Part shown: positions 13,618-52,483 of the stretch, piece by piece
How the letters are laid out: every line of letters begins with the position of its first letter
Numbering within the stretch: position 1 is the first letter of the stretch
Assembly: GCA_016866995.1 (NCBI GenBank)
Contig: VGKQ01000004.1
Coordinates: 1 to 61,103 of the forward strand
DNA length: 61,103 nt
From: Candidatus Pacearchaeota archaeon
Lineage (GTDB): Archaea > Nanobdellota > Nanobdellia > Pacearchaeales > GW2011-AR1
Direction of reading: 5' to 3'
Position numbers and translations under genes: made by a program
Notes under the pieces: generated by a model
Databases searched by the model: none
What the model saw: the letters and a program-made list of their open reading frames with translations, nothing else
Told to the model about the DNA's origin: nothing

Positions 13618-13619
13618 AA

Positions 13620-14471: not shown

Positions 14472-14487
14472 TTATGCCCCCAAAAAG

Positions 14488-24828: not shown

Positions 24829-27800
24829 GTGCTAGAAAAGTATTTAAACCTGTTTTTTCTTAATTCTCTATTAAAAAAAGAGATTAACTTGAGAAGCTTA
24901 AAATTATTTATTTCTGCATTATTTGTATTAGTTTTTTCTATATCATTTATTTCACTTATCTCTGCCTATTATGTTGGGAATATTTATTTTACAATTCCTG
25001 ATTCTGTTTTTAAGACAAATGAAAGAGTAGAATTTGTAGGATATCTTTTTCTTGCGAATTATACAGAAAATGGAACATATGTTTCTTCTTCCATGCCTGT
25101 TGCAAATGCGACAATTAACTTGACTATTTACAACAGCACTGTTTTTGTAAGCAATTACACATTTACAACTGATTTTCAGGGGAAATTTTACTCGAGAAGC
25201 AGTTATTACGGAAGCGCGACACAGGTTAATACATCTTCTAATCCTGGAAAATACATAATCCGTGCAGAATATATTGATCCTGAAAATATGACATGGTTTT
25301 CAGAAGTTGAAATAGAAGTATTTAACAGCACTCTGGATTTGCTGTCAGTAAGCTCTGAAAAAGTTAAGTACAACTCTCTTGAAACAATTAAAGTTAATGT
25401 AGAAGCAATAAGAATGCTTGGAGATAATTTGTTTTATATTGCAAATGTTTCTGTTTTGGGAAGCTTGAGAAACTCATCAAAAGCTGCGCTTGGGACATTC
25501 TCATGCACAACAGGAAGCAGCGGGAAGTGCTCAACAACAGTAAATGCGCCCTTAACTTACGGAAGCTATATTCTTGAAGTCAATAATTACAAGGCATTCA
25601 GCAGCTTTGTTGTCGCGCCTTTTTCTGCAAATGCATATATGAAAGATGAGCTTGGGAAGAGCATGAAAAATATTTTTTCTGTCGGAGAGCAGGGAAGAGT
25701 TGAAGTAAGCATTTTGAATGCAACATCAACAGATGTTTATAATTTTTCAGGATATATTGCCAATCCTACAGGGAGCAGCATCAAGGCAATAAATCCAACT
25801 TTATTAAACAGCAATAATTCTTTTACAAATTCATTTTTGTTCAGTATTGACAACCAATTTACTTATGGAACATATACTGCCTTTCTGACTATTTACAAGA
25901 GAGGAGACGGAAGCATAACAACTTCAACTTCTTTTGAGGTTAAGGACTGGGACTTAAGCATAAACAAGAGAGCAAGCAATTCTGGGTTTGAATATAAATA
26001 CAGTGTTTTTCCAAATAAGACAATGTATTTTGAGGCATATCCAACTTACAGGACAAATGGTTCTGTAATTCCTGGAATAAACTCAACATTTTTCTCAATA
26101 AATATGACAGACAATTTAAATAATATAATCAAGACAGCAAATATGTCATGGAACTCGTCCTGCGGGACTTCTGGATGCTATCAGTTTTACATAAATTCTT
26201 CGTCAAATACTGGAAAATTTTTCTTATCTGTAAGCTTGGCATATGGGGGAGATATACAAACAAAGAACCAGATTGTTGATGTTATAGGAAGTGTGATGTC
26301 TGCGCAGTCAACAGACAAGGACGGGAATATAAAAGAATTATTTGGAACAAATGAGTATGCTTATCTTTCATTAACAGCATATAATCTGACAAGTTCATCA
26401 TTTAATTTAACTGATGCTGAAATATTTCTTGTATCATATATGAATGGCTCTGATTTTTTATACACTCAAGTTAATAATTTTTCGCTTGTTAATTCATCAA
26501 ACAGTGCTTATGAGTGGGCATGGAATTCAACATTGCAAAGAATAAAACTTGATGTGCCAAAGGCAGGAGGCATTTTCAATGTGCTTTTGTTTGGAGATAA
26601 CAGGAGCATTGGAACTGAAACAAAATTTATTGTAAATCCATATGATGCCTGTCTTTCTCCTAAAAATACTCCTGGCAGTGTAACTAGTGGATATTATTAT
26701 GTTTATCAGTTTAAGACAACTGATACTGTATATTTTGAGATTAAAATGTATCAGGCAAATAATCCGCTTGGAAGAGCAACTGCTACAAACGGAACTAATG
26801 GAAGCACTTATGGAATGGGAAGCCAATGCGCATCTGATTCAACAAAACAAGCTGTTACAAATGCAACTCTTTCTGTTCAAGAAGTAAAAAATCTTGAGTC
26901 TGTAGCAACACAGAATATAAATGCTTCTGAATCAACTTGCCAGGCAAGTGATAATTCTGGGGCATATACATGCACTGTAAAACCATTGTCAAAGTGGGAT
27001 GGAGGAGGAAGCATTGTCAAAATAGCAGTCAGAGGGCAGGATGGAACAACAACAATAATATACGGGAGATTTGAATCAAGAGCATTTTATATGTATGGAT
27101 ATCCAAGCACATGGCAGAATAATCCTTCAAGCAATATTTCCTTGAATTTGCAGATTTATGAGGCAGGAAGCAACTGGTGGAGCACTTATGGTGGAAGCGG
27201 CGGATTGAGCGGAACAGTGACTTTAAAAAAGATTGAGTATCAGGGAAGCGATGGAGAGTGGCTTTGGCCTCCAATAAGTTATAATTATAATGTTACTGCT
27301 GTAAATTCAACAAGCATTACATCTGGAAGAGGAACTATAAATTTGACAGCTGCTCTTGCGCCCGGGGGGAGATGGAAGACAGGATATTATAGAGTTATAT
27401 TACAGGCAACAACAACATCAGGAGATACTGATTATGGGTATGCGTGGTTTGGAGTTAAGTTATGGGATGTTTATGGCTCTCCTGTTGAGTGCAATAATTA
27501 TGGGTGTGGATATAAAAGTTACTTCAATTCAAAGGAAAATGTTTCTCTTTATGTTACAATAAACAAAGCAGGAAGCAATTACTGGAGTTATTCTGGCGGG
27601 CAGGACATAGGAGGAAATGTCACATTGGGAGTAAAGAAAGTTCAGAATTGCAGAACCTGGCCGTGCAAGGAATTAAACTCAACAGATTATGTTGCAACAA
27701 GAACAACTGTTAATGCATCAAGCCCGTGGTACTGGAATGCAAACTTAAACAGCACTTTTAACAAGTATTTTGTTTATATTAATACAACAAAAGGAAGCTG

Positions 27801-29814
27801 GGGCACTGGATATTATGCTGTGACATTAGATGTTAATGGGACAGATACTGGAAATGCGTGGTTTAATACGCTTGCGTTTTATGTTGAAACAACACCAACA
27901 AATGCAAATGGCTCGGGATGGAAATCCGGAATTAGAGGGCATTTGCCAATGTATTTTAATGTAACAACTGTCAAGAATTACAAGTCAGGATATTCCTGGT
28001 ATAATGGCTCTGACTGGTTTTATATAAGATATAATCAATCAGATTATGTGAATGTAACAGTTGATGATGTTGTCTTGAGAACATGGGATTATAATACTTA
28101 CACATCAAAAGAATATAATTATCCTGAAGATATAAACATAACTCCTTTCAGCATTAATGGAAGCGCTGTTGTAAATATAACTTATAAAAATGGGACATGG
28201 CCTACTGGATATTACTGGGGAGAATTGAGCTTGAAGAATTCTGACAATGAAACTTCAACAGGCTGGCTTTGGTTCTCTGTCCAGCCGTTTAGAGTAAATG
28301 TGCAGGCAACTAATTATGAAATAGACTATGACCAGTGTGTCAATGCTTCATTATCCATTTACGAGCCAGATTGGTATTCAACAGAGCCTTTATGGGGAAA
28401 TTATTCAGTAACAAGTGTTTATGAGAATATCTGGAGCGGGGGAGGAAGCAGCACAACTGGATATACAAATTATACTTCTGGAAGCTTTAATGCAACGACA
28501 AATATAACTTTATGTCCAAATAGCGCAACATGGGGAAGTGGAAGCTGGGGAGGATATCATTATATGAATGTTGTTGTTAAGGATAATGCTTTAAATGACA
28601 CTCAGACAGGATGGCTTTATTTTAAGGCTACTCCTTTTAGAATTAGTTGGAGCGGGACAGGAGGGAGCAGGCAGACAAATGAAAACTTTAATGTCACTGC
28701 TATTGTAGTTAAACCTACAACTGGCTTGAATACAACAGCAAATTTAACTAGAATTTACCAATGGAGATATGATAATTATATGAGCACACTTGAGGAATAC
28801 AGATTTAAAGTAGGAAGCTGCGACTCTGCTGTTTCAGGACAGTGCACTGTAAATGGAACACAGAATGTGACAATATATGCGCCTAGTGGAGGATGGAAGG
28901 TTGGTTATAATTATTTATATTCCCAATGGAAGAGCCAGACTGATTCAACATTAGTAGTTGATGATTGGTATGGGATTTATTTTGATGGAAGAGAGGCATA
29001 TAATGGATGGTTTGAAAACAGGGATGCTGGCGGCTATAATTGGAAGTATGAGTTTGCAAATAATGAGAATTTGACAATCAAGCTTTTCACAAGGGATTCA
29101 AGTTATAGTGCTGCTGATTTAACTATTAGATCTGTGCAATATGCATATTCTGCTGACAGCTGCGGAGGAGAATGGTGCAAAACTTATTCTACTGCAACTT
29201 TCTCGCCAACATCAACATCTGGAGGAAGTGCTTTAATTAAAATTCAGGTGCCGAGCAATAACTGGAGTTATGGATATTATTATATAAAAGCAAGTGTTGA
29301 AGGGAGCGGAGGGGCAGCTACAATATTGGGAGGAGAGGTAAGAGTGAAAGATTTGACTGCGCCAAATGTTACAATACATACTCCTCTAATGAATGGCACT
29401 TATTCAGGAAATAACTTGTCATTTGCAGCAACAACAAGCGAGAATGCTGAATGTGGACTTGGAATTTATAATTTTGAAAGTTATTACAACTGGATGTGTT
29501 GGGGATGGAATTTATCAAATAATTCAGTAATCCAGAGATTTATTGATTCGTGCAATGCTTCGTATTATGGATATAATGGAACAAGCTATTATAATTTATG
29601 GATTTCAAAAGATTATTATTCTGCTTATAATGGCTCTGTTTCAAGTTATGGTACTGGGAGCTATATGACAACAGGTTCAAGAGCACACATCTATGTATTT
29701 AATACAACAGAATGGCCTGCACAGCATTATGGGTTGTATGTATGGTGCCGTGATAATGACTGGAATTATGGAACTTCAATGGCTACATTTAAAATAAATA
29801 ATAGTGTTACATAA
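24829..29814 (+). CDS. giant Asn/Ser/Thr/Tyr/Trp-rich secreted surface protein
   Basis: 1661 aa. N-terminal signal/anchor LKLFISALFVLVFSISFISLISA. Very many N-x-S/T sequons and repeated WGTGYY / WKTGYY / WPTGYY beta-sandwich-like modules. The start codon is uncertain (GTG at 24829). Confidence 0.85.
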   Translation: MLEKYLNLFFLNSLLKKEINLRSLKLFISALFVLVFSISFISLISAYYVGNIYFTIPDSVFKTNERVEFVGYLFLANYTENGTYVSSSMPVANATINLTIYNSTVFVSNYTFTTDFQGKFYSRSSYYGSATQVNTSSNPGKYIIRAEYIDPENMTWFSEVEIEVFNSTLDLLSVSSEKVKYNSLETIKVNVEAIRMLGDNLFYIANVSVLGSLRNSSKAALGTFSCTTGSSGKCSTTVNAPLTYGSYILEVNNYKAFSSFVVAPFSANAYMKDELGKSMKNIFSVGEQGRVEVSILNATSTDVYNFSGYIANPTGSSIKAINPTLLNSNNSFTNSFLFSIDNQFTYGTYTAFLTIYKRGDGSITTSTSFEVKDWDLSINKRASNSGFEYKYSVFPNKTMYFEAYPTYRTNGSVIPGINSTFFSINMTDNLNNIIKTANMSWNSSCGTSGCYQFYINSSSNTGKFFLSVSLAYGGDIQTKNQIVDVIGSVMSAQSTDKDGNIKELFGTNEYAYLSLTAYNLTSSSFNLTDAEIFLVSYMNGSDFLYTQVNNFSLVNSSNSAYEWAWNSTLQRIKLDVPKAGGIFNVLLFGDNRSIGTETKFIVNPYDACLSPKNTPGSVTSGYYYVYQFKTTDTVYFEIKMYQANNPLGRATATNGTNGSTYGMGSQCASDSTKQAVTNATLSVQEVKNLESVATQNINASESTCQASDNSGAYTCTVKPLSKWDGGGSIVKIAVRGQDGTTTIIYGRFESRAFYMYGYPSTWQNNPSSNISLNLQIYEAGSNWWSTYGGSGGLSGTVTLKKIEYQGSDGEWLWPPISYNYNVTAVNSTSITSGRGTINLTAALAPGGRWKTGYYRVILQATTTSGDTDYGYAWFGVKLWDVYGSPVECNNYGCGYKSYFNSKENVSLYVTINKAGSNYWSYSGGQDIGGNVTLGVKKVQNCRTWPCKELNSTDYVATRTTVNASSPWYWNANLNSTFNKYFVYINTTKGSWGTGYYAVTLDVNGTDTGNAWFNTLAFYVETTPTNANGSGWKSGIRGHLPMYFNVTTVKNYKSGYSWYNGSDWFYIRYNQSDYVNVTVDDVVLRTWDYNTYTSKEYNYPEDINITPFSINGSAVVNITYKNGTWPTGYYWGELSLKNSDNETSTGWLWFSVQPFRVNVQATNYEIDYDQCVNASLSIYEPDWYSTEPLWGNYSVTSVYENIWSGGGSSTTGYTNYTSGSFNATTNITLCPNSATWGSGSWGGYHYMNVVVKDNALNDTQTGWLYFKATPFRISWSGTGGSRQTNENFNVTAIVVKPTTGLNTTANLTRIYQWRYDNYMSTLEEYRFKVGSCDSAVSGQCTVNGTQNVTIYAPSGGWKVGYNYLYSQWKSQTDSTLVVDDWYGIYFDGREAYNGWFENRDAGGYNWKYEFANNENLTIKLFTRDSSYSAADLTIRSVQYAYSADSCGGEWCKTYSTATFSPTSTSGGSALIKIQVPSNNWSYGYYYIKASVEGSGGAATILGGEVRVKDLTAPNVTIHTPLMNGTYSGNNLSFAATTSENAECGLGIYNFESYYNWMCWGWNLSNNSVIQRFIDSCNASYYGYNGTSYYNLWISKDYYSAYNGSVSSYGTGSYMTTGSRAHIYVFNTTEWPAQHYGLYVWCRDNDWNYGTSMATFKINNSVT

Positions 29815-40180: not shown

Positions 40181-43100
40181 TTACATCCTGATTTTTCTTC
40201 CGAACTTTTTCGCTAACTTGAGCATCTGCTTTTGTGAGAAGCCCTGCTGCATTTCTGACATATCTCCATCTTTTATAAAACTTGAAATCATCTTGTATTG
40301 CTTGAGAAGAGCCCGGACATCGCTTGTATTTATTCCAGAGCCTTTTGCTATTCTTGCTATTCTGCTTGTCTGTTTTTCAATTATTTCTGGATTTTCTATT
40401 TCCTCGCGAGTCATGCTCTGGATTGCAAATTTCCATTTTTTTATTTTTTCTTCCTGATTTTCCAGCATGTTTTCCGGAATTTTTGCATTTCCTAATCCTG
40501 GAATTAAATTTTTTATTTTTGACAGAGAGCCGATGTTTTCCATGCTTTTTAGCTGTTCTAATAAATCAAGCATTGTGAATTTGCCTTCTTTTAATCTTTC
40601 CTGCATTTGCTTTTGTTTTTTCTCATCTACAACAGATGAAACTCTTTCTATTAAACTCTGCAAATCTCCCATGCCAAGCATTCTTGACAAGAAACTTGAG
40701 GGATTAAACAACTCAATATCATGAACATGCTCGCCTGTTGTTATAAAATAAACAGGAGCTTTAGTCTCATGGCACGCTGTCAATGCACCCCCGCCTTTTG
40801 CTGTTGAATCCATTCTTGTTATAATTACCCCATTAATTGAAAGAGCTTTTTGAAATTCAGAAGCTTGCTTTTTTGCAGCCTGCCCAATATCAGCAGGCAT
40901 TACAAGAATTGTGTAATCTGGCTTCAACTCGCGTCCTAATTTTTTTATTTCATTAATTAAATCTTTATCTAGAGCATCTCTCCCTGCTGTGTCTACAAAA
41001 ATCAAGTCATATTGGTTTAACTCGCGAGAAAATTTTTTCCATGTTTTTATTGGGTTATTCTCTTCTTTGTCAATGAAAACTTTGAAATTATTTTTATTTC
41101 CAAGCTGTTCTAACTGCTCGCGAGCAGCTGGACGATGAACATCCAAGCCAAGAGCTGCTGTTTTAAATCCCCTTTTGTTGTAATATGCTGCTAATTTTGA
41201 GATTGTTGTTGTATTATGCACAATAAAGTTATCTGCGATGAAACTATGATTATCTTCTATTGTCAAATCATAAACATAATTTTCATCATTTTCTAATTTT
41301 TTAATATCACTTATCTGCCCCCATTTAGCATCCGAGTATGCTAAAATCCTTAGATTATTTAACTCTTTTAAGAAATGTTCTTGATTAATTGAGGCAAGAT
41401 ACTTATTGCCTATTGAAGTTAAAATATTGCTTTTATTGATAAATCCTGCTTTCTGTAAGTGAGTTATCATTCCATTTAAAATGTTATGATTTATTGTTTC
41501 ATTATGGTTTAGTTTATTGAGAATTATTGGAAAGATTCCTAATCTTTTTGTTTCATAGTATAAAACCAACTTAATTAACTGCTCTTTGGAGATAAACCCT
41601 GCTTCTTCATATCTTCCATAGCTATTAACTGCACTCTGGATTTCTCCTATCGAGAACCCTCCCATCTCCCTGATATTCTTTAAATAATCTCCCAGTGGAA
41701 TCATCTCATTTCTTCCACTTCCCTGAATTTGCCCATATAACTGGAATTTTGATAGGTTTTCTTTTTTATGAAAAATAACCGAGCCTATTTTTTCTGCGTA
41801 TCTTTCAGATGATCTTCCGGAGATTATCATTCTGCAATAATCCTTGCCATTTACTTTCTTGCAGGATATGGAGCTTGATATTGAAAATCTTTTAAGCAGA
41901 AAACTTATTTGTTGAATTAATGTTTTGCTTTCAGAAGTTAATTCAATCTGCCTTGAGCCTTTTGATGGTGAGCCATCGCAATCAAAATATGCTTTTATAA
42001 AACTTTTGACAACCTCATTATCTGATTTTAGTATTTCTTCAGGAACTTCCATGTTCGTTCCTTTTCTGCCAGCTTTTAATTTAAATATCTCTAATAATTT
42101 GACTAAGGTTGTTGAACAGAAGATTACTCTGAACATTTTGTTGGTCCTTAAATCTCTCTTAATTTTTGGGGCAGTATTAAATAAGTTCTTCCCAAGATAA
42201 GTTAGCCTTTCAATAATCTCCTTGTCTTCGCTTACTATTTCAATATATTGTTTTCCGATATGCCCATCTCCCATTAAATATCCTAAAAATTCTGCAAACT
42301 CTGGATTAATTGTTAAAGGAATTGAAATAATATTTTTACTGTTTTTTAACTTTGCAGTAATAATGTTAAAATTCTCCAGGCTTACTAATTCTATTGGAAC
42401 TTGCCCCTCTCTTAAAGAGATTGTAAAACAGCAGTAATTTTTTTGGCATTTAAGGCTTTTACAAATCTCTTTTATTTCTTTGTCTCTTATAATCTCTTGA
42501 ACTTGCTTTTTAGTCAGGCAGAGGTCTAAATTAAGAGTTTTTATTTTATTTCTAATTGACTGAGGAATTCCACTAATTTCTATTTTTTCTGGAATGGCAA
42601 TGAAATTTTCTTTAGTTAACTCATCTGCTCTTATTTGAATAATCTTCCCCTCCTTTAAGGCGAAAAAGGGATGTTCTGGAGTTACTCTGATTGAGAAATC
42701 ATTGCCATTATCTATTTTTACTTCATATAATTCTTTCTTTTTCAGCTTCCACAAATGAGTTGCTTTTTTATTTTCTATCTTGCAGGTTTTAGGATTAAAT
42801 GATGGGACAAATAATTCCTGGCTTGAAATATCTATTATTTTTCCGTCTTCTAAATATGATTCTCTTAAAAATAAATATTTATCATATAATTTTTCTGCTT
42901 TAATCAACTCGCCTGTTGAAAGTTGTATTTTTGTATCTTTATGAACGCATTTTCCTGCTCCGTACAATCCAAGAAGCATAATTTTAATATTCTTGTTTTT
43001 TTCTAATTCTAATTCTTTCTGGCTTCCTCCTAAAATTTCGAGCAATTTATCATGAAGCAACTTGATTATATGCTCTTTTTTCTCTATTCCCTTAATTCTC

Positions 43101-43285
43101 TCGTCAAAAGCTGCTTTTCTTAGTTCGTCACTTAAATTTTTGACAAGATGAATATTTACATCTGCTTCTATCAAAGCTCTCTGCAAGTCTTTTATGATGC
43201 TTTCAACAATATTTTTGTCAAGAAAAATAGCATTAGCTATCTTGTCTGTTGCTTTTTTTATTGCTGATGAAAGTTTTTCAAACAT
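40181..43285 (-). CDS. srp54: signal recognition particle protein SRP54, interrupted by an intein in the P-loop
   Basis: N domain is present. The G-domain P-loop GLYGAGK|TTT is split by the intein. DTAGR, TRMDSTAKGGGAL and a Met-rich M domain follow. The exteins total 455 aa. Confidence 0.95.
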   Translation of the reverse strand: MFEKLSSAIKKATDKIANAIFLDKNIVESIIKDLQRALIEADVNIHLVKNLSDELRKAAFDERIKGIEKKEHIIKLLHDKLLEILGGSQKELELEKNKNIKIMLLGLYGAGKCVHKDTKIQLSTGELIKAEKLYDKYLFLRESYLEDGKIIDISSQELFVPSFNPKTCKIENKKATHLWKLKKKELYEVKIDNGNDFSIRVTPEHPFFALKEGKIIQIRADELTKENFIAIPEKIEISGIPQSIRNKIKTLNLDLCLTKKQVQEIIRDKEIKEICKSLKCQKNYCCFTISLREGQVPIELVSLENFNIITAKLKNSKNIISIPLTINPEFAEFLGYLMGDGHIGKQYIEIVSEDKEIIERLTYLGKNLFNTAPKIKRDLRTNKMFRVIFCSTTLVKLLEIFKLKAGRKGTNMEVPEEILKSDNEVVKSFIKAYFDCDGSPSKGSRQIELTSESKTLIQQISFLLKRFSISSSISCKKVNGKDYCRMIISGRSSERYAEKIGSVIFHKKENLSKFQLYGQIQGSGRNEMIPLGDYLKNIREMGGFSIGEIQSAVNSYGRYEEAGFISKEQLIKLVLYYETKRLGIFPIILNKLNHNETINHNILNGMITHLQKAGFINKSNILTSIGNKYLASINQEHFLKELNNLRILAYSDAKWGQISDIKKLENDENYVYDLTIEDNHSFIADNFIVHNTTTISKLAAYYNKRGFKTAALGLDVHRPAAREQLEQLGNKNNFKVFIDKEENNPIKTWKKFSRELNQYDLIFVDTAGRDALDKDLINEIKKLGRELKPDYTILVMPADIGQAAKKQASEFQKALSINGVIITRMDSTAKGGGALTACHETKAPVYFITTGEHVHDIELFNPSSFLSRMLGMGDLQSLIERVSSVVDEKKQKQMQERLKEGKFTMLDLLEQLKSMENIGSLSKIKNLIPGLGNAKIPENMLENQEEKIKKWKFAIQSMTREEIENPEIIEKQTSRIARIAKGSGINTSDVRALLKQYKMISSFIKDGDMSEMQQGFSQKQMLKLAKKFGRKIRM
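41213..42949 (-). mobile_element. SRP54 intein with LAGLIDADG homing-endonuclease domain (579 aa)
   Basis: Starts with Cys (GAGK|CVHKDTKIQL) and has block B TPEHPF. LAGLIDADG motifs are LGYLMGDGHIG and AYFDCDGSP. It ends FIVHN followed by Thr (HN|TTTISKL). Confidence 0.9.
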
Positions 43286-43297: not shown

Positions 43298-44107
43298 TTA
43301 TATTGTGTCAAGAGGGCTTTTTATATTTTTTATGTTTGCCTGTGAGATTTGAGTATAAATTTGAGTGGTTTTTATATCTGAGTGTCCAAGTAGTTTCTGT
43401 ATTATTCTTAAATCTGTTCCCTGCTCAAGAAGATGGGTTGCAAAACTATGCCTTAATAAATGAGGATAAACTTCTTTTTTAATTCCTGCTTTTTTTGCAG
43501 AATTTTCTACTATTTTTGCAATTGTTTTTTTAGTTAATTTTCCTTCCCTGTTGGAAGGAAATAATATTTTATCACTATTCAGCTTGCAATATGCTTCAAG
43601 CTCTTCTTTTAATGAATCCGGAATTTTAACAAACCTGTCTTTTTTTCCTTTCCCAAGGCTAATATGAATCAACTTTTCTGAAAAGTTAACATCCTCTTTC
43701 ATTAAATTTATGATTTCAGAAACGCGGAGCCCGCAGCCATATAAAACCTTTAGTATTAGCTTGTGCTTTATATTGCTTGTTGCCTGAACCATTTGTCTGA
43801 TTTCTTCTTTTGTTAGTATCTCGGGAATTTTTTTGTTTCTCTTTGGTTTTGGAATACAGATTTTTTGATTTAATATATTCTTAAAGAAATATTCTATTGC
43901 AAATATGCTGTGAGAAACTGAAGATGGTTCATTTTTCTTTAGCTGAAAAAGAGCAAAATTACTGGCAGTTTCTTTATTCATACCTTTGTTTTCTGTGAAT
44001 TCAAGATATTTTTTGACATGAATCAGATAAGATTTTATAGTTTCCCCTGAATAATTTTTCAGAAGAAGATTTTCTTCAAGTTTTTTTAATAACCCTTGAT
44101 ATTTCAT
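43298..44107 (-). CDS. tyrosine recombinase (Xer/IntI-like), candidate integrase of the adjacent cassette array
   Basis: Catalytic R (CGLRVSE), K (GKGKKDR), HxxR (HLLRHSFATHL), H (LGHSD) and Y (TQIYTQI). N-terminal SAM-like domain (NYSGETIKSYLIHVKKYLEF). Only 269 aa, with no long insertion before the HxxR box. Confidence 0.88.
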   Translation of the reverse strand: MKYQGLLKKLEENLLLKNYSGETIKSYLIHVKKYLEFTENKGMNKETASNFALFQLKKNEPSSVSHSIFAIEYFFKNILNQKICIPKPKRNKKIPEILTKEEIRQMVQATSNIKHKLILKVLYGCGLRVSEIINLMKEDVNFSEKLIHISLGKGKKDRFVKIPDSLKEELEAYCKLNSDKILFPSNREGKLTKKTIAKIVENSAKKAGIKKEVYPHLLRHSFATHLLEQGTDLRIIQKLLGHSDIKTTQIYTQISQANIKNIKSPLDTI

Positions 44108-44154
44108 AAGTTTTACATTTTTTTATTATTTATAAAGATTACTATATATCTTAA

Positions 44155-44200
44155 TTGGATATGTAAATTTACCATAATTTCCATATCCAATATGTTAGTT
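44155..44200 (+). other. attI-like site
   Basis: A 9-bp inverted repeat TTGGATATG-N18-CATATCCAA is followed by TAT and GTTAGTT (44194-44200). It lies 87 bp from the recombinase start codon. No left core or palindromic partner is present. Confidence 0.45.
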
Positions 44201-44312
44201 GCAATTTGCCCCCTCGCTACGAAAATGAACGGAAGCTCTACCACTGATAATTATTCATTTATTAGTGATTACAAAAGGAAGATTTATATACTCTTTTAAT
44301 ATTATTCATGCT

Positions 44313-44966
44313 ATGGAAAAGACATTAAAAGAAAGATTTGACAAGTGCTCTTGGGATGAGTATTTTTATAGAAAATTTCACGCGCTTTGGCGCTCTGTCC
44401 AAGCAAGAGGAGGCTATGAGATAGCTAATCTTTTTATGCAAGAACGAGCTGGGAATCTACATTTATTTCCATGTGGTGCAGAAGGAATAGGTTTACCAAC
44501 TGACGAGTTGTCTCAACTTATCTATGTTCCTAGAATGGTATTAGAACTAGATAAGAATTCAAAGAGCAAAGATAGGGAGAATGGTATAGCATTCTTTTCC
44601 AAAGATGATTTAAATCAATTTACAGATAATAATCTGCCATACCCTCACTACCATGATGTCACTCTTGTTGATTTTATTTTATATACCGGTTCAGAGAGAT
44701 TAAGAGGAAATAGTAACGAATATTTAACAAGCCAACAAGTTTTAGATAAAATAGCTCATGATTTCTTATATCAACAGAAAGCCATGCAATATTCACGAAG
44801 ATTATTATGGCATTGTAAAAGGAGGAATGATAAAGATTTAGGAACTGATGAGATAAGAGATACTACCACAGAGATTTTTAGACCTAAATCCAGCAGAGAA
44901 AAGGTGGATAGATTTATACATGAACTTATTGTTTTATACGCTTCTGAAATGGACTTGACTTTTTGA
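44313..44966 (+). CDS. cassette 1 ORF, hypothetical protein
   Basis: 217 aa from MEKTLKERFDK. A TATA-like tttatata lies about 30 nt upstream. No recognisable motif. Confidence 0.65.
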   Translation: MEKTLKERFDKCSWDEYFYRKFHALWRSVQARGGYEIANLFMQERAGNLHLFPCGAEGIGLPTDELSQLIYVPRMVLELDKNSKSKDRENGIAFFSKDDLNQFTDNNLPYPHYHDVTLVDFILYTGSERLRGNSNEYLTSQQVLDKIAHDFLYQQKAMQYSRRLLWHCKRRNDKDLGTDEIRDTTTEIFRPKSSREKVDRFIHELIVLYASEMDLTF

Positions 44967-45050
44967 TTTTTTCGCTTGCTCGGGGGCAAACTTTGATTTT
45001 TTGCTTCGCAACATTGCACTAAAAATCAACCACTCCAAGTATTCGTGGGC

Positions 45051-45166
45051 AACTAACAGCGATTAAGTGGTTACGCTCGGTTGCACCTCGCTCCACCCAT
45101 ATTTTTCGGAAATTTATAATATTTTTAGATAGTCCGAAAAACATCGCTTAATCGCATATGTTAGGC
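45051..45166 (+). other. attC-like site 1 (116 bp)
   Basis: Structure is AACTAAC-A-GCGATTAAG ... CTTAATCGC-ATAT-GTTAGGC. The internal stem is TTTTTCGGA/TCCGAAAAA. Confidence 0.7.
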
Positions 45167-45209
45167 AAAATAAATTTTTGGGCGATAATAGGACATCTTA
45201 AGAATTCTA

Positions 45210-45575
45210 TTACTTATTCAAAAAAAAGTTTATAAGTTTATATATTCCATACCCAATACCACCATAAACAGCAACACCTCCTACAATCATTACTGCAGTC
45301 ATTATCTTTTCTTCACGAGAACTCATTTCTTTTTCATAAGCTGCTGTATATTCTGGGTGATTTTCCTTTAACCAAAAATATTCTTCATGAGAAAGTCTAG
45401 GTCTTTGCCAAGGAGAAGGCATTGCAGAAGGAGCATTATTGTCTAGTGCATGTTCATCTAACTCTCTTTCTCTTTCCAATATTCCTTCTAATTGTCCAGG
45501 GCTAATGTACTCTCCTCTTGCAAATTTAGATTCAAATGCCCTATAATCAACTGTATGATTTTTCTCATTTACCAT
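45210..45575 (-). CDS. cassette 2 ORF, hypothetical membrane-anchored protein
   Basis: 121 aa with a C-terminal TM helix (IMTAVMIVGGVAVYGGIGYGIY). It has its own AT-rich upstream region containing a TATA-like box. Confidence 0.65.
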   Translation of the reverse strand: MVNEKNHTVDYRAFESKFARGEYISPGQLEGILERERELDEHALDNNAPSAMPSPWQRPRLSHEEYFWLKENHPEYTAAYEKEMSSREEKIMTAVMIVGGVAVYGGIGYGIYKLINFFLNK

Positions 45576-45701
45576 ACTATAAAGAATGTTATATAAATAT
45601 ATAAACTTTATGATTACTTCTCGCCCAAAAATTTACTCTGCGGATTTTTCGAAGAAAAAATCCTTGCCACGTTGCACTCTCCTCCCTTCGGTCGTCGGGT
45701 C

Positions 45702-45834
45702 GCCTAACAGCGATTAAGAGGAAACCTCGTTGCACTTCGGTTTCCCAAATTTTTTGCCAACTCTCAAAAATCCTCCAGTTATATGGGTCGGATTTTTGGA
45801 GGGCAAAAAACTTCTCTTAATCGCGATGTTAGTT
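45702..45834 (+). other. attC-like site 2 (133 bp)
   Basis: Structure is GCCTAAC-A-GCGATTAAGAG ... CTCTTAATCGC-GAT-GTTAGTT. The inner arms are complementary at 11 of 11 positions. The internal stem is imperfect and contains bulges. Confidence 0.75.
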
Positions 45835-45908
45835 GCAATCAGCCTCGGGCGCCTATTAGATTTTTCATCACAATAATCCTTTTAAAGACTAATCTTATTC
45901 TTTTATTC

Positions 45909-46580
45909 ATGGATGAAAAATTAGTTAGAGGGGAACTTCCTATTCAATCTGTTTATCAGAGAGGAGAAGCAGTTACTGCTACTGTTCCTATTCATTTAGC
46001 TGTGATGGATTTACCAGAGAAAGTTAGAACTGATGTTTCTTTAATCGCAGATGCGAAGGATATTGTTAAGCTATGGTATGATGAAGACATGGCTTATTAT
46101 CTGCGTGTTTTGAGAGAAGCAGATATGGAACTCCCTTGGCTTGAAGATTATGAAAGATTTAAAGATGAGTGGCAGCTTGATGGAGAACCAAGTGACGGAT
46201 TTTTATCTTTATCTTGGAGAGAAAACGGAGAAGTTCATAATATAAAATATAATTCTGTGCCTGTAGTTCTTCGCAACCAACACGATGAATTTGGAGAATT
46301 TTATACTCCAGAATCATGGAAACGAGGAGGTTGGATTGAGATAATCTATAGAAATGTAACAGACCCTGAAGTTGTTGCAATGAGCCCGGAAAAAATGCGA
46401 AGGTATGGTAGAGAAACAGACATCGCCAGAATCCATGAAGATAGAGGTCTTGCCGAAGTTGTTGGTAATGCTTTTAGTTCTGATTATCATATGAATATGG
46501 CAAAAACTCTGCTATTGAGAGATTTTGCAGTTTTCTATTTAAACAGATTGCTGGATAAAGCTAACGGAAGTTCCCCTTAA
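45909..46580 (+). CDS. cassette 3 ORF, hypothetical protein
   Basis: 223 aa from MDEKLVRGELPIQ. The track start at 45783 lies inside attC-like site 2 and was trimmed. Confidence 0.65.
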   Translation: MDEKLVRGELPIQSVYQRGEAVTATVPIHLAVMDLPEKVRTDVSLIADAKDIVKLWYDEDMAYYLRVLREADMELPWLEDYERFKDEWQLDGEPSDGFLSLSWRENGEVHNIKYNSVPVVLRNQHDEFGEFYTPESWKRGGWIEIIYRNVTDPEVVAMSPEKMRRYGRETDIARIHEDRGLAEVVGNAFSSDYHMNMAKTLLLRDFAVFYLNRLLDKANGSSP

Positions 46581-46655
46581 TTTTACGGCGCCCTCGGCCG
46601 ACTTCTCCGAATTTTTGTTCCAAAAATTCTCGACCTTCGCAAGTTTGCTCAGGGG

Positions 46656-46750
46656 ACTTAACAGCACTTTTACGGTTCCGCCTTCGCTCTGCCGCTCGGC
46701 TCCACCCAAACTTGCCTCCGGCAAGCTTCGTAAAAGTGCATATGTTAAGT
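46656..46750 (+). other. attC-like site 3 (95 bp)
   Basis: Structure is ACTTAAC-A-GCACTTTTACG ... CGTAAAAGTGC-ATAT-GTTAAGT. The arms are complementary at 11 of 11 positions. The internal stem is CTTGCC/GGCAAG. Confidence 0.75.
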
Positions 46751-46812
46751 CGAATAATTTTTCGGGCTCGCTTATTGGAATTCCCACCCACGTTAGGGGC
46801 ACTCTCAAAGAA

Positions 46813-47223
46813 TCACAAATACTTTTTAACAAGATTTGCAGCAGTAAATCCAATACAATAACCAACTGCAGTTTTTCCTGCACCTAAAACTGCTCCTCGT
46901 GCAGCAAATGGCAAGGCAGATTCTGAGTACCTTTCTACTGATGCCATTGTAAAACTTCCAACTAAATACTCTGCTCCAGATTGAAGAACGGTTGGAGCAA
47001 TTTTCATAGATAAATCTGCTACCAATGGAGCATTTATTCCAAATCCGTCTAAAAATCCTGCAGTTGCTCCGCTAACCAATGCAACAATTCCAAACAATCT
47101 ATCTATAGAATTTCTTTTCCCTTGTTCCTTTAATTGCTCATTTAAAGGATGCCCCTTTACTCTTTCACAGACAAGTCTATCTAAAAGACCTATATTCTTT
47201 GTATCATAAGTTTGATCTGCCAT
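46813..47223 (-). CDS. cassette 4 ORF, hypothetical Gly/Ala-rich membrane-associated protein
   Basis: 136 aa, with glycine-zipper-like segments (GIVALVSGATAGFLDGFG and GAVLGAGKTAVGYCIGF). Confidence 0.6.
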   Translation of the reverse strand: MADQTYDTKNIGLLDRLVCERVKGHPLNEQLKEQGKRNSIDRLFGIVALVSGATAGFLDGFGINAPLVADLSMKIAPTVLQSGAEYLVGSFTMASVERYSESALPFAARGAVLGAGKTAVGYCIGFTAANLVKKYL

Positions 47224-47414
47224 CTTGTTATTTTCTCAGAAATCGCTGAGGACGAATCACCTCAATGATGATAATAAGCGTCGACTTTTAAACCTTTCGA
47301 AAGTGCCCCTTTTTCGTTTCCCACCCTACGAAATTGGCTCGCCCGAAAAATTACTTCTCCTTCCTTTCAGTCAGTCGACCACATTGCATTCTCAAGTCTG
47401 CGGACTTTCGGGGC

Positions 47415-47473
47415 GTATAACAGCGATTATATACAATTCAGAAGTCGGCTATATCGTAAAAGAGGGGTTTCGG
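47415..47473 (+). other. attC-like site 4 (degenerate)
   Basis: Structure is GTATAAC-A-GCGATTATATA ... CTATATCGT ... GTTTCGG. The left core and arm are good, but the right core fits GTTRRRY poorly. Confidence 0.4.
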
Positions 47474-47508
47474 GCTAGCAATTACAAAATTATTACTAAA
47501 TTAAAATT

Positions 47509-48210
47509 CTAAACGCCAACTTGTCTATTGAGTACTTCCATACAACGTGATAGAACTTCCCTATCATACTGTAGCATTTGTAAATTATGCTCAAGAGGCC
47601 ATGGTATAACATCCTCAGGAGGTTTGTGGGATAATCTATAAAACCACGATTTCCTCACATATTCCTGCCACCTTGCCTTAAATTCTTTTGCTTTTTCAAT
47701 AATTTGTTTTTTAGTACTTTCCATCTCTTGTAAACAAGTAGCATATTTCGATTCTAAAAAATATTTTGTTTTACCCCTAAATAGATTGTTTTTTGCTACA
47801 TCTTCCATATCATGAATACTAAGGTATCTACCTATTTCTTCAGGTTCTACTCTAGCCCCCATTTCCACAACCTTTGCTAGTACTAACCCTACACCTAAGG
47901 GAATGTTATGATTTTTAAATAAAATTTCTCTCAGTTCTTCTGGGGTATACTCAATTCCAAGCTTCTGTGATAGTGTTAAGTAAGTAGTTGTGAACCAGCC
48001 ATCTACTGTAACTGAAGTTTGGGACTCTGGATGTATCATAGCTTCATATAATCCATCCCGGAATTCTTTTGTGACTACTACTTTTTTATCTTCTGTAGAA
48101 TTTACAAGATTATTTATATATCGATTTCTTTCAGCGATACTGCCACTTAAACAACCCTCTAAAGATCGCTTATCCAAAACAATTTCTACTAATTGATTAT
48201 CTTTTCCCAT
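47509..48210 (-). CDS. cassette 5 ORF, hypothetical protein
   Basis: 233 aa. An SD-like gaggt and a TATA-like aaagtttatatt lie upstream on the minus strand. Confidence 0.65.
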   Translation of the reverse strand: MGKDNQLVEIVLDKRSLEGCLSGSIAERNRYINNLVNSTEDKKVVVTKEFRDGLYEAMIHPESQTSVTVDGWFTTTYLTLSQKLGIEYTPEELREILFKNHNIPLGVGLVLAKVVEMGARVEPEEIGRYLSIHDMEDVAKNNLFRGKTKYFLESKYATCLQEMESTKKQIIEKAKEFKARWQEYVRKSWFYRLSHKPPEDVIPWPLEHNLQMLQYDREVLSRCMEVLNRQVGV

Positions 48211-48448
48211 TTTTACCCACTTACCTCTTCATTAATTAGGAATAATATAAACTTTAAAAATATATCGCCCGAACCCCTCTTACTTCTTTTACTCTAATGC
48301 TCTCCGAGCTTTATACGCCGACTTTTGAACTCGAAAGTTTTAATCTTCTTCCTTGTTCACTCCGTTCACAATATCAGAAGTTAAATCTTTCGGTTTTCTC
48401 CGCTCGAGGGAAAATCAAAGATTTTCCAGCTCTGAGCTTCGAAAACGA

Positions 48449-48497
48449 ATATAACAGCGATTAAGTGAAATTCAAAAATCGTGCTCCCAAGTTACGT
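48449..48497 (+). other. attC-like site 5 (short, 49 bp)
   Basis: Structure is ATATAAC-A-GCGATT ... AATCGTGCT-CCCAA-GTTACGT. The arms pair with one bulged base. Confidence 0.55.
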
Positions 48498-48508
48498 TCG
48501 GGGCAAAA

Positions 48509-48832
48509 TTATCTCAACACAGCTACATCTACAGGCTTCATATCTCTGTCACCTGCTCCGTCATAGAATTGTTTTATATTAGCCATTTCTGCAATTCTTC
48601 TTAGAAAATCTTTTACTTCTGGAGTTCTATAATTACAACTTGACCAACACTGAACTAAAAGTGGAAAATCTTCTTTAGGAGTATATCTTACAAGACAAAC
48701 TTTGTTATCGCTTAACCATTGTCTATTTGGAAGTTCGCATGAACTATCTTGCATATTAAGCTCTCGACTACATAAATCTGCAAGATTTTCCACTTTATCT
48801 TTTGGAAATGAATCCAACCAATAGTATGCCAT
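48509..48832 (-). CDS. cassette 6 ORF, hypothetical protein
   Basis: 107-aa ORF with no recognisable motif. Confidence 0.6.
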   Translation of the reverse strand: MAYYWLDSFPKDKVENLADLCSRELNMQDSSCELPNRQWLSDNKVCLVRYTPKEDFPLLVQCWSSCNYRTPEVKDFLRRIAEMANIKQFYDGAGDRDMKPVDVAVLR

Positions 48833-48968
48833 GACATTTGAGAACTTCAGACTGCTTATAAATTTTGCCCCTCACTAATTCAAATTTCCCACCCGCCCAC
48901 GCACGATTTTTGAACTCAAAATTCTTTCAGAATTTTTGGGACGCTGCGCTTTCGCTATCGCTCAGGGC

Positions 48969-49086
48969 ACTTAACAGGCATTAACAGGAATTTTACTCGG
49001 CTCGTGATTTTCCCAAATTGAGTTCTCAGCTCTGTTCCCTTCAGTCACGAGGAGAACTCAACTTCTGTTAATATGGGATGTTATGT
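48969..49086 (+). other. attC-like site 6 (118 bp)
   Basis: Structure is ACTTAAC-AGGC-ATTAACAG ... CTGTTAAT-ATGGGAT-GTTATGT. The internal stem is TTGAGTTCTC/GAGAACTCAA. Confidence 0.7.
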
Positions 49087-49127
49087 CTAATTCAAAATTC
49101 GGACTAAAAAAATAGAAACCGAAAGAT

Positions 49128-49601
49128 TTATTCTCTCGGAGAAAAAGTTCCATCACCATTGTTCAATAATTCATAAACGTTTGCAGTTAAATTTCCAACA
49201 TATGAAACAACAACAGCATCTAATCTTCCATCTCCATTCATATCTCCTGTTGCAACACCCGCTCCAGTACCCCATGTTGGAACTGATCCTATTTTTCTAG
49301 TTTTATATTGACCATTTCCTAAATTTTCATTTAAGTAAACGTTTGCAGTTAAATTTCCAACATATGAAACAACAACAGCATCTAATCTTCCATCTCCATT
49401 CATATCTCCTGTTGCAACACCCGTTCCAGTACCCCATGTTGGAACTGATGCAACTGGTTTAGGAGCTGATGCTTTTTCTCCTTCAGATTTTGAACATCCT
49501 ATTGTGCCTAAAGCCAATACTCCTACCAATACAATACTTGTTAATGTTTCTTTAATTATCATACAATTAGATATTAATGGCATGTTTATAAATCTTCCCA
49601 T
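49128..49601 (-). CDS. cassette 7 ORF, lipoprotein-like protein with two FG-GAP/VCBS-type repeats
   Basis: Signal plus LGTIGC lipobox-like motif. The segment VPTWGTG.GVATGDMNGDGRLDAVVVSYVGNLTANVY is repeated twice. Confidence 0.7.
   Translation of the reverse strand: MGRFINMPLISNCMIIKETLTSIVLVGVLALGTIGCSKSEGEKASAPKPVASVPTWGTGTGVATGDMNGDGRLDAVVVSYVGNLTANVYLNENLGNGQYKTRKIGSVPTWGTGAGVATGDMNGDGRLDAVVVSYVGNLTANVYELLNNGDGTFSPRE
49174..49449. repeat. tandem duplication, two 114-nt copies 162 nt apart
   Basis: 49174-49287 and 49336-49449 differ at one position (cccgCtcc versus cccgTtcc). They encode the two FG-GAP-like repeats. Confidence 0.85.
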
Positions 49602-49715
49602 ATTTTTACTACTCTAGAATTAATAATAAAAGCGCGCCCCGTCCCCCGTCCTTAAAATTACTCTAAAATTAATCTTACTTGCCACATTGCATTTTCGGGC
49701 TGATGCCCTCGGGTC

Positions 49716-49741
49716 GCTGAACAGGGCTTAACAGGTTCAGG
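49716..49741 (+). other. terminal truncated attC-like site
   Basis: Reads GCTGAAC-AGGGCTTAACAG-GTTCAGG. The left core plus arm resembles site 6 (AGGCATTAACAG), but it abuts a right core directly. Confidence 0.4.
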
Positions 49742-49827
49742 CTTTGATAGTTGTATAAGTCATCTAACATAATTCCTAAGGGCTTTTTGGGTTTTTAAGG
49801 ATTATATTTACTAGAATTCAATGTTAT

Positions 49828-50985
49828 TTAATCTAAACCCAGTGCTTTGATTATTTCTTCTTTATTGAATTCCTCCAAATCTTTGTAATCCTGCCCTGTT
49901 CCGAGAAATAAGATTGGCTTTCCTGTCACATAACTGACACTTAAACTTGTTCCGCCTTTTTCATCAACATCCTGCTTGCTTAGAATTATTCCATCAATTC
50001 CAACTGCCTGGTTAAATGTCTTGGCTTGTTCTGTCGCATCATTTCCTGTTATGGCTTCTCCTACAAATAATTTCAAGTCTGGCTTGCTTACTCGAATAAT
50101 TTTTTCCATTTCCTTGAGAAGACTTGAGTTAGTGTACATTCTTCCTGCTGTGTCTACAAGAACAACTTTTATTTTTCTTGCCTTTGCATATTCTATTGCA
50201 TCATATGCAACTGCTGCCGGGTCTGAGCCGTATGTTTGTTTTATTACTTTAATTCTGAGCTTTTCTCCATGCTTGACAAGCTGCTCAATGCTTGCTGCTC
50301 TAAATGTGTCTGCTGCTGCGAAAACACTTGAGATTTTATTCTGTTTTAAGAAACTTGCGAGCTTAGCAATTGTTGTTGTTTTTCCGCTTCCATTTATCCC
50401 AAAGAAAACAATAACAAATACACCTTCTTTGCTTTTTATTTTCTCGATTAAATTAAAACCCTGAATAAATAAACTTGAGAGCGAGTTTTTAAGAGCTGTT
50501 TTTATTGCTTCTTCAACCTCTTCTTTTTTTACTTCCTTGTCAACAAGTTCTTTTTTCAAGTTCTCGCGCAAGTAATCAACAACATCAAGAGCGACATTAT
50601 TTTCAAGCAAAATATTTTCTAAACTCTCAAATAACTCTGAAAAATCTTGTTCTGTTATTCTGTATTTTCTTGACAACCCAATTCTCTCCCAGAATGATTT
50701 TTTTTCTTCTGTTTCTTTTTTTTCTTTTTCCTGCTTGATTTGTTCAATAATTTCATCAGGGCGCGGAATAGGCCTTATTTCTTCTCCTTTTTCTTTCTTG
50801 ATATCTTCTATTAAATCACTTGAAATTTTTCTTTCTTCTTCCAGCTCTTTTTTTGTCCGTATTTTATGTTCAATTTTTTCTTTTGGCTTTTTTTCCTTGA
50901 TTTTCTTTTCTTCTTTTTTTGGTTTCAGAACTACAACTTTCGGCTTTATCCATGATTTCAGCTTATCTTTCAGGAAATTGAACAT
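49828..50985 (-). CDS. ftsY: signal recognition particle receptor FtsY
   Basis: Lys/Glu-rich N-terminus. NG domain with GINGSGKTTTIAKLA, DTAGR and SKQDVDEKGG. Confidence 0.93.
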   Translation of the reverse strand: MFNFLKDKLKSWIKPKVVVLKPKKEEKKIKEKKPKEKIEHKIRTKKELEEERKISSDLIEDIKKEKGEEIRPIPRPDEIIEQIKQEKEKKETEEKKSFWERIGLSRKYRITEQDFSELFESLENILLENNVALDVVDYLRENLKKELVDKEVKKEEVEEAIKTALKNSLSSLFIQGFNLIEKIKSKEGVFVIVFFGINGSGKTTTIAKLASFLKQNKISSVFAAADTFRAASIEQLVKHGEKLRIKVIKQTYGSDPAAVAYDAIEYAKARKIKVVLVDTAGRMYTNSSLLKEMEKIIRVSKPDLKLFVGEAITGNDATEQAKTFNQAVGIDGIILSKQDVDEKGGTSLSVSYVTGKPILFLGTGQDYKDLEEFNKEEIIKALGLD

Positions 50986-51840: not shown

Positions 51841-52398
51841 ATGATAACATATAATGATTTATACGAGCTTTTGAGAAAGGAAAGATATTCTGAGCAGATA
51901 CAAATCCTGCCCGGAAGTTTTTTTGATGATGTAAGAGACTATTTTGAGGACAAAAAACAGATGACTTTGAAAGATACAGACATGTTTTCAGATGCTGTAA
52001 TCAAGTCAAAGAAGCAGTTTGAAAATGCAATAAGCATATTCCGAGAGCTTATGCTTAGAAGAAGAAAGAAGCTCTTGAATCTGGCTTTTGTTGCTGCTGA
52101 GACTGGAATTTCAAAGAGAGATTTTGAGAATATGCTTGATTTTGAGAGAGAGCTTTTTGAGAAGATAATAAAAAGCATGGAAGACACTGAAAAGAAAATA
52201 TCTGAATTTTTAAACGGGAAGAAGCAGGAACAAGAGAAGAACAGGATGATTGTTTTTAAGGAAGATACTTCTGAATTTCTTGGCACAGAAGGAGAGATGA
52301 TAGGACCTTTCAAAAAAGGAGATATTGCGAATCTTCCTGTTGAGATTGTGAAAATTCTGGAGACAGCAGGGAAAATTGAGAAAATAGAGGATAACTAA
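51841..52398 (+). CDS. GINS-subunit-like replication protein (tentative)
   Basis: 185-aa helical protein. N-terminal YNDLYELLRKERYSEQIQILPGSFFDDV and C-terminal GPFKKGDIANLPVEIVKILETAGKIE resemble archaeal Gins15/51, from memory. Confidence 0.45.
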   Translation: MITYNDLYELLRKERYSEQIQILPGSFFDDVRDYFEDKKQMTLKDTDMFSDAVIKSKKQFENAISIFRELMLRRRKKLLNLAFVAAETGISKRDFENMLDFERELFEKIIKSMEDTEKKISEFLNGKKQEQEKNRMIVFKEDTSEFLGTEGEMIGPFKKGDIANLPVEIVKILETAGKIEKIEDN

Positions 52399-52483
52399 GC
52401 CTGTAGAGAGATTCGAACTCCCGACCCCCGGTTTTCTTGCATTGATACAAAACCGATGCTCTGACCAGCTGAGCTATACAGGC
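52398..52483 (-). tRNA. tRNA-Thr (anticodon UGU) with a 12-nt intron at 37/38
   Basis: Acceptor GCCTGTA/TACAGGC, D arm GCTC-AGCTGGTCA-GAGC, anticodon stem TCGGT/ACCGG, loop TTTGTA|TCAATGCAAGAA|A, T arm GGGAG-TTCGAAT-CTCTC. Its 3' end touches the stop codon of the upstream gene. Confidence 0.85.

Follow-up and report, generated by a model that had tools for sequence, protein, structure and literature searches.

A small Xer-like recombinase encoded in a genome of Candidatus Pacearchaeota archaeon sits beside a conserved insertion site and an array of gene cassettes, and for this reason it is probably the integrase of the array, although it lacks the extra helix (I2) that every known integron integrase uses to recognise folded cassette sites. 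Taken together, the gene, the proximal site and the cassettes form an integron-like platform (integrase, attI, attC), whose assignment rests on comparative sequence evidence alone, with catalysis by this protein being inferred. The original prediction noted that the recombinase associated with the array is Xer-sized and seems to lack the IntI-specific insertion, and this observation is confirmed. Its interpretation, which left three possibilities side by side, is partly supported, in that the comparative evidence favours one of them, namely a compact recombinase that handles attC-like hairpins differently.

The window considered here is the whole stretch of DNA that was analysed, 61,103 nucleotides of contig VGKQ01000004.1 (assembly GCA_016866995.1), and all coordinates refer to it. 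Related loci are designated by L followed by a number. The features of the locus are as follows.

40181..43285 (-): flanking core gene, SRP54 carrying a LAGLIDADG intein; it starts 13 nt after the recombinase stop codon.
43298..44107 (-): tyrosine recombinase of 269 aa, Xer-sized, lacking the IntI additional domain and ending in an IKSPLD tail; proposed integrase of the platform.
44120..44150 (-): A+T-rich, TATA-like stretch between the proximal site and the start codon, conserved as (T)ATAGTAACCTTTATATA in orthologous loci; presumed promoter of the recombinase gene, a function that is inferred.
44155..44190 (-): inverted repeat of the proximal site, with arms at 44155-44163 and 44182-44190 (TTGGATATG / CATATCCAA).
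44194..44202 (-): attI-type junction, reading GTTAGTTGC on the plus strand and GCAACTAAC on the gene strand, with the crossover within GTT/AAC at 44194-44196.
44195..45160 (+): cassette 1, made of ORF 44265-44966(+), 233 aa with no Pfam hit, and its own site.
45042..45175 (-): attC-like three-way-junction site 1 (94.3 bits, E 3e-17).
45693..45843 (-): attC-like three-way-junction site 2 (72.8 bits, E 8.5e-13).
46647..46759 (-): attC-like three-way-junction site 3 (89.2 bits, E 3.6e-16).
48960..49095 (-): attC-like three-way-junction site 4 (80.5 bits, E 2.2e-14).
47408..47470 (-): degenerate site remnant that keeps TATAACAGCGATTA but has lost the 3' half; recognised as a member of repeat families D3 and D15 (families of repeats within the window) and not found by the covariance model.
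48450..48502 (-): degenerate, short site remnant (repeat family D15).
49707..49760 (-): degenerate outermost site remnant, marking the end of the array (repeat family D3; weak model hit, E 0.6).
45210..49601 (both strands): remaining cassette ORFs, 45210-45575(-), about 45910-46580(+), 46813-47223(-), 47509-48210(-), 48509-48832(-) and 49128-49601(-); the last is FG-GAP-like, and the others have no Pfam hit.
49828..50985 (-): flanking core gene at the outer end of the array, FtsY-type SRP receptor.

The Recombinase

The protein is a full tyrosine recombinase, with a PF00589 match at E 2.4e-44 and an N-terminal SAM-like domain. R128, K153, H216, R219, H242 and Y251 are invariant columns across the aligned recombinases and are read as the intact catalytic set. 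The stretch between GKGKKDR and HLLRHSFATHL is 57 residues, and not about 50 as originally estimated, while the same interval in IntI1 is 100 residues. In this alignment, IntI1 and a Vibrio IntIA-like protein carry two extra segments of about 27 and 11 aa, which are absent from the window protein, from a CPR homologue, from another DPANN recombinase and from a XerD-type protein. A C-terminal SPLD motif is instead shared with IntI and is absent from the XerD-type sequence.

A phmmer search against the PDB aligned the protein end to end with the XerA of Pyrococcus abyssi (4a8e, E 4.6e-49) and with that of Thermoplasma acidophilum (5hxy, E 1.3e-39). Regarding Vibrio cholerae IntIA (VchIntIA, 2a3v), the alignment is in two pieces, query 9-172 to residues 8-179 and query 191-267 to residues 242-318, so that IntIA residues 180-241 are skipped and about 44 residues are missing. 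The AlphaFold2 model (pLDDT 86.6) shows only short strand bridges, and no extra helix, between the predicted helices 164-176 and 193-206, and a Foldseek search with it ranked XerA 5hxy, IntI 2a3v and XerA 4a8e on top. The protein scores above the NCBIfam equivalog cut-off for archaeal XerA (NF040815, 236.6 against 220) and below the cut-offs of the integron integrase models (TIGR02249, 210.7 against 265; NF011946, 120.2 against 435), and the absence of the additional domain predicts no full hit to the intI_Cterm profile of IntegronFinder. However, NF040815 also accepts CPR bacterial and other clades, and NCBIfam scores cannot separate the array-linked clades from their sister clades.

A neighbour-joining (NJ) tree of 51 sequences and 273 columns, with 200 bootstraps, gives 100% support to the Pacearchaeota-type clade, 100% to the CPR clade, and 79% to a second DPANN clade, while the two clades linked to arrays are sisters only weakly (48%). 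All of these, together with IntI and some Bacteroidota-type proteins, form a clade (81%) that excludes the characterised euryarchaeal XerA proteins, themselves a separate clade (78%). This tree is a rough one, obtained by NJ only, and the placement of the protein apart from XerA is provisional.

The Cassette Array

Upstream of the gene, at higher window coordinates, seven short ORFs lie between the recombinase and ftsY, and none of the cassette ORFs listed as remaining has a homologue in the 80 related loci described below. Four intergenic elements share one plan when read on the gene strand: TAAC, 3-4 nt, an 11-bp stem, GAAGTT plus a hairpin, TTGGG(TGGAG) plus a hairpin, the complement of the stem, 1 nt, and GTTA. 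Each element folds on the strand that encodes the recombinase, into an R stem (TAAC/GTTA), an asymmetric internal loop (3-4 nt against 1 nt), an 11-bp L stem, and a three-way junction with conserved motifs (GAAGTT, TTGGGTGGAG, GTAACC), the three-way junction being also the consensus fold given by RNAalifold. These elements have the features of attC sites, namely imperfect palindromes with R''/L''/L'/R' boxes that fold as hairpins with unpaired bases, with the difference that an internal loop replaces the single extrahelical bases and that the junction carries sequence motifs. No Rfam family matches them.

Two motif scans were too unspecific to be of use, and a crude search for R boxes and stems, which gave chance hits at a stem length of 7, was replaced by a covariance model built from 14 sites. 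In the window, this model finds only the four full sites, all on the minus strand, in addition to the weak hit at the outermost remnant. The original prediction had the array divergent from the gene as in a classical integron, and this is correct for the sites, whereas five of the seven cassette ORFs in the window run in the non-classical direction.

Related Loci in Pacearchaeota-type Archaea and CPR Bacteria

A scan of one genome per species returned 80 loci that encode relatives of the recombinase. Sites of the same plan, with the same internal motifs, turned up next to relatives in Pacearchaeota-type archaea (64-81% identical to the window protein) and, unexpectedly, in CPR/Patescibacteria bacteria (41-45%). 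The model finds 35 sites in 15 of the 80 loci, all on the recombinase strand and all upstream of the gene, and four more Pacearchaeota-type loci, retrieved by exact protein look-up, all carry sites. Over 20 sources there are 47 sites at E<=1e-4, every one on the gene strand and all but one upstream of the gene. At least one site is present in 10 of 12 Pacearchaeota-type loci with enough upstream sequence and in 10 of 10 such CPR loci; two orthologous loci, L004 and L006, keep the proximal site but have no detectable array within 10 kb. Across the 80 loci, sites occur in these two clades only, leaving 11 other DPANN recombinase loci, equally distant in sequence (41-45%), and the rest without any.

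The site structure is supported by covariation: on the alignment of the 47 sites, which is fitted to the model and thus favours the structure, 93.5% of cells are paired, 20 of 26 pairs have changes on both sides, and the covariation score is 0.50, against 0.14 when shuffled and at most 0.09 when slid. Moreover, the gene strand gives the more stable fold in 45 of 47 sites (p=2e-9), and a G-T pair is kept in 45 of 47. The folded strand is thus the sense strand of the recombinase gene, as in classical integrons. In the CPR loci nearly all cassette ORFs lie on the strand opposite the recombinase, each followed by its site, exactly as in integrons, while in the archaeal loci many ORFs lie on the recombinase strand.

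The Proximal Site

Every member of the two array-linked clades has, just upstream of the gene, a site with the same R-box core: AAATTGnAnnTAAC, a 3-5-nt spacer, an inverted repeat whose arms covary between orthologous loci, and then a TATA-like box. In 10 Pacearchaeota-type loci the TAAC starts 89-91 nt before the start codon; in the window it starts 90 nt before it and is the complement of 44194-44197, the site reading ..AAATTGCAACTAA|C-ATAT-inverted repeat. The 11 other DPANN recombinase loci have neither this site nor any array, and the same holds for the remaining loci. The spacer between the arms of the repeat is 6 nt in some loci and 10-18 nt in others. In L005, L006, L008 and L010 the repeat has dif geometry, with 11-12-bp arms and a 6-nt spacer, while in the window and most orthologues the spacer is 10-18 nt, which is not a workable Xer core. 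This repeat may mimic, as a hairpin, the L stem of a cassette site, or it may be a dif or an operator.

Cassette Boundaries

The most telling result concerns the ends of the cassettes. In L003, whose recombinase is 73% identical to that of the window, a 213-nt unit without an ORF occurs three times at 100% identity, and the identity begins and ends inside an AAC triplet. The left neighbours of the three copies differ, while the right neighbours are another site, the unit itself, and the proximal site.

More generally, for 41 cassettes the 6 nt after the GTT of the 3' half of a site were compared with two candidate partners. Complementarity to the 6 nt before the AAC of the next site toward the recombinase is 4.9/6, with 20 perfect, whereas complementarity to the site's own 5' flank is 3.0/6, with 1 perfect; permuted pairs give 2.6, with a maximum of 3.22 in 2000 permutations (Wilcoxon p=2.7e-7). 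This is the signature of circular cassettes opened within AAC/GTT, the two ends of each cassette being complementary halves of one R box. For the innermost cassette the partner is the proximal site, and 12 of 16 are perfect, including the window, where GCAACTAAC at the proximal junction (complement of 44194-44202) matches the far R half of site 1 at 45049-45057, with the flank 6/6 complementary. The proximal site is therefore the insertion point, that is, an attI, and the gene is adjacent both to it and to an attC cassette array with the crossover at G|TT.

Comparison with Known Systems

With integron integrases, their attI and their attC (class 1 IntI1; V. cholerae IntIA, PDB 2A3V), the locus shares a recombinase gene next to an insertion site and divergent from an array whose sites read RYYYAAC...GTTRRRY, folding on the sense strand of the integrase gene, a crossover in the AAC/GTT triplet, circularly permuted cassettes, a variable cargo mostly of unknown function, and the SPLD motif. 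It differs in the absence of the additional domain or I2 helix, in the length of the protein (269 aa against 320-337), in the score below the TIGR02249 cut-off, in the lack of single-base bulges in the L box, in the covarying inverted repeat of the proximal site, and in the many ORFs on the integrase strand of the archaeal arrays.

With archaeal XerA/dif (4A8E and 5HXY) the protein shares size, predicted fold, and the NF040815 match. In Thermococcales, however, dif is a single 11-6-11 site in the terminus region and is not next to xerA (PMC2958812), while here a different kind of site sits at a fixed distance from the gene and carries cassette junctions.

A further comparison is with IMEX elements that use Xer on folded single-stranded DNA, of the CTX-phi type, and with single-recombinase Xer systems that have dif beside the gene (XerS/difSL, XerH/difH). 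In these terms, a Xer-type enzyme without I2 would act on a folded single strand that mimics a duplex site, with elements piling up in tandem at one chromosomal site next to the recombinase gene; a single-stranded-IMEX scenario is sketched by Escudero et al. (PMC7790495). Here, the inserts are short, gene-sized cassettes with a dedicated, conserved site family, not phages or islands, and the junction is outside the dif-like repeat.

Finally, the taxon and the kind of array are those of the archaeal CALINs of Ghaly et al. (PMC9668308), who found integrons in 75 archaeal MAGs but only six IntIs, all defined by the additional domain, with most arrays scored as CALINs. All nine Nanoarchaeota MAGs with attCs in the part of their Data S1 considered here, among them four Pacearchaeales, have 0 IntI, the MAGs concerned including Pacearchaeales and Woesearchaeales, and L090 comes from the same species as one of them. 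That study looked for integrases only through the IntI-specific profile, and did not link these arrays to the adjacent Xer-like gene or to a proximal site. Full-text searches, covering open-access papers and bioRxiv only, found no description of an I2-less integrase tied to such arrays.

Interpretation

The explanation that we favour, with moderate confidence, is that the 269-aa protein is the integrase of a chromosomal, integron-like gene-capture platform, made of the recombinase gene, the proximal attI, and an array of cassettes each carrying one attC-like site. The sequence comparisons establish the anatomy and polarity of this platform, its conservation in two recombinase clades, one in Pacearchaeota-type DPANN archaea and one in CPR bacteria, the crossover triplet, and the nature of cassettes as units whose ends join within AAC/GTT, including at the proximal site. 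It is instead by inference that this recombinase performs the strand exchange: by analogy with IntI and with XerCD acting on folded phage ssDNA, this would be one exchange between the proximal site and the folded gene-strand form of a cassette site, resolved by replication. Likewise inferred is that recognition relies on the conserved junction motifs and the asymmetric internal loop, rather than on the I2 helix that docks extrahelical bases in IntI. The protein may in addition serve as the XerA of the cell.

Some findings weigh against this view. In IntI1 and VchIntIA the I2 helix is held to be needed for attC recombination (PMC7790495), so that an I2-less enzyme doing this job is unprecedented; in addition to the profile scores, the weak monophyly of the array-linked clades, the two loci without an array and the direction of most cassette ORFs in the window, the gene abuts housekeeping genes as if in an operon. 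Moreover, a site-first scan of metagenome contigs returned mostly short contigs or chance matches (of the 80 stretches listed, 15 passed the model and only about four were informative), but among these, solo sites occur with 2.8-9 kb of room and no recombinase, as is also true of classical integrons.

Among the alternatives, a dual-function XerA is possible but considered unlikely. In this view the protein is the only Xer recombinase of the lineage, the proximal inverted repeat is its dif, adjacent to the gene as in XerS/difSL and XerH/difH, and hairpin cassettes exploit this pair as single-stranded IMEX-like elements, so that the same enzyme still does the insertions but capture is a by-product of chromosome-dimer resolution. 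The NF040815 score, the tight packing with core genes, the dif geometry in four orthologues, the retention of the site without an array in L004 and L006, and an identity among Pacearchaeota (64-81%) similar to that of the neighbouring SRP54 are in its favour, as is the finding of only one tyrosine recombinase in the window and in each related locus, within 10 kb. On the other hand, the spacer of the window and most orthologues does not suit a Xer core, the crossover mapped by the cassette ends lies in the AAC, 3-4 nt outside the repeat and not at an arm-spacer boundary, CPR bacteria carry the same module, the protein does not group with characterised XerA, and the second DPANN recombinase clade, which lacks the site, could be the true XerA.

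Another possibility of the original prediction, a plain XerA beside an integrase-less attC cluster built by another integrase, canonical IntI or other, in trans or in a former host, is how current IntegronFinder-type criteria would file the locus, and how Pacearchaeales arrays were published (as CALINs), and the absence of I2 and the solo sites agree with it. It is nevertheless doubtful, because chance adjacency cannot explain 47 of 47 sites on the gene strand in 20 sources from two domains of life, a proximal site at a fixed distance from the start codon, innermost cassettes ending at that site in 12 of 16 loci, or the complete absence of sites next to sister recombinase clades. The nine Nanoarchaeota MAGs with attCs in the part of Data S1 considered here, which have no canonical IntI, also speak against it. 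The related possibility that the true integrase lies elsewhere is disfavoured, though not excluded, since these nine MAGs from that part of Data S1 have no canonical IntI and the window holds no second tyrosine recombinase. It is very unlikely that the repeated elements are not recombination sites but structured RNAs, terminators or MITE-like repeats that happen to cluster here: the conserved three-way junction with motifs is unusual for attC sites, and several ORFs in the window are flanked by other inverted repeats, but no Rfam family matches, the unit boundaries sit in AAC/GTT with complementary halves, identical cassettes occur in three contexts, and the intervening genes are unrelated between genomes.

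A bolder reading, which remains tentative and is less likely than not, is that DPANN archaea and CPR bacteria share an old integron lineage whose integrase never acquired, or has lost, the I2 helix, and in which a Xer-like enzyme would recombine folded three-way-junction cassette sites with a hairpin-bearing attI next to its own gene. If so, it would be the natural intermediate between Xer/dif and IntI/attC that experimental work says is lacking, and it would turn the archaeal and CPR CALINs of this site type into complete integrons. Integron integrases are defined, and searched for, by the I2 helix, whose acquisition is the textbook step from duplex to single-strand recombination; Escudero et al. 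(PMC7790495) treat it as the step that created integron integrases, while noting the lack of natural intermediates. A conserved integrase-attI-attC platform with a Xer-sized enzyme would show a second structural solution for recombining folded cassette sites, would explain why the Nanoarchaeota arrays in the published survey, as far as its data table was considered, were scored as integrase-less, would reveal gene-capture platforms in the two great groups of ultra-small, host-dependent microbes and shared across the two domains, and would supply a small enzyme with a well-defined site pair for studying how strand choice and single-strand exchange work without I2.

Additional Observations on Strains and Synteny

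All five contigs that carry the identical protein are the same strain and, for this reason, show no array polymorphism. In public runs that hold this strain, which are kept only as assembled contigs, Logan unitigs break at the junctions, at 44195-44223 for the proximal site and at 48461-48508 for one of the degenerate remnants, and extra depth is found over cassette flanks in samples where the strain is rare, but no excision products or circle junctions were seen. L077, which looked like a second recombinase in one MAG, is only a fragment of the same sister-clade gene as L038. Synteny is not conserved among the related loci, with SRP54 lying downstream of the recombinase only in L009.

Genes and repeats around the array

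The stretch that carries the recombinase and the cassettes includes, besides these elements, the following features:
40181-43285 (-), SRP54 gene, starting 13 nt after the recombinase stop codon
37371-37500 (+) and 52398-52483 (-), two tRNA genes
18761-24583 and 24829-29814 (+), two very large ORFs (1940 and 1661 aa)

The SRP54 gene is interrupted in frame by an intein with a LAGLIDADG homing-endonuclease domain, giving a product of 1034 aa. Regarding the tRNA genes, the first spans 130 nt and so probably contains an intron, while the two large ORFs are located in a region of higher G+C (about 0.38-0.41).

Within the array, the minus-strand cassette ORFs are bracketed by a second inverted repeat (AAATTTTTGGGCG / CGCCCAAAAATTT), found at 45165-45188 / 45618-45641 and 46760-46775 / 47338-47360, and a conserved leader (GTGCAAYGTGGCAAG plus a small hairpin) lies between each site and its ORF. 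In the loci of CPR bacteria, a GC hairpin (GGGCGATAGCCC) sits in the equivalent place, before the R box. In addition, the outermost cassette ORF (49128-49601, FG-GAP-like) contains a 127-nt direct repeat at 49174-49300 and 49336-49462, whose copies are 94% identical and 162 nt apart, and this is an internal duplication of a repeat unit.

Sites in related loci and in the lake community

The CPR proximal sites, located about 100 nt upstream of the recombinase genes in five of the related loci (L018, L024, L027, L031 and L037), contain TATACGAAGT and TTCGTATA, which are the same as parts of the loxP arms, although this is probably a coincidence. The only site found downstream of a recombinase gene is the one at 12238-12340 (+) of locus L089, and it lies within a run of small minus-strand ORFs. 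Moreover, a solo site of the CPR type, at 8990-9108 (-) of locus L147, has no recombinase within 9 kb; the sequence expected for the other end of its cassette (CCGATAAC) lies about 433 nt further on, as if one cassette had been inserted at a secondary site.

Locus L039 (positions 9698-10858 and 11534-18024 of the locus), on the Cytophagales chromosome CP126125.1, encodes a 386-aa relative with an N-terminal extension of about 100 aa and apparently no additional domain. This gene is followed, downstream rather than upstream, by six hairpin sites of another type, with 9-10-bp stems, and it may represent another array-linked recombinase of Bacteroidota that lacks the I2 helix.

Finally, in two of the public sequencing runs, X6 and X7, cassette-flank segments and part of the cassette at 48509-48832 (segments 44868-45091, 47332-47555 and 48452-49123) have several-fold more depth than the chromosomal backbone in samples where this strain is rare, and some contigs keep the flanks but carry other cargo. 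Cassette boundaries therefore seem to be shared with other genomes in the lake community.
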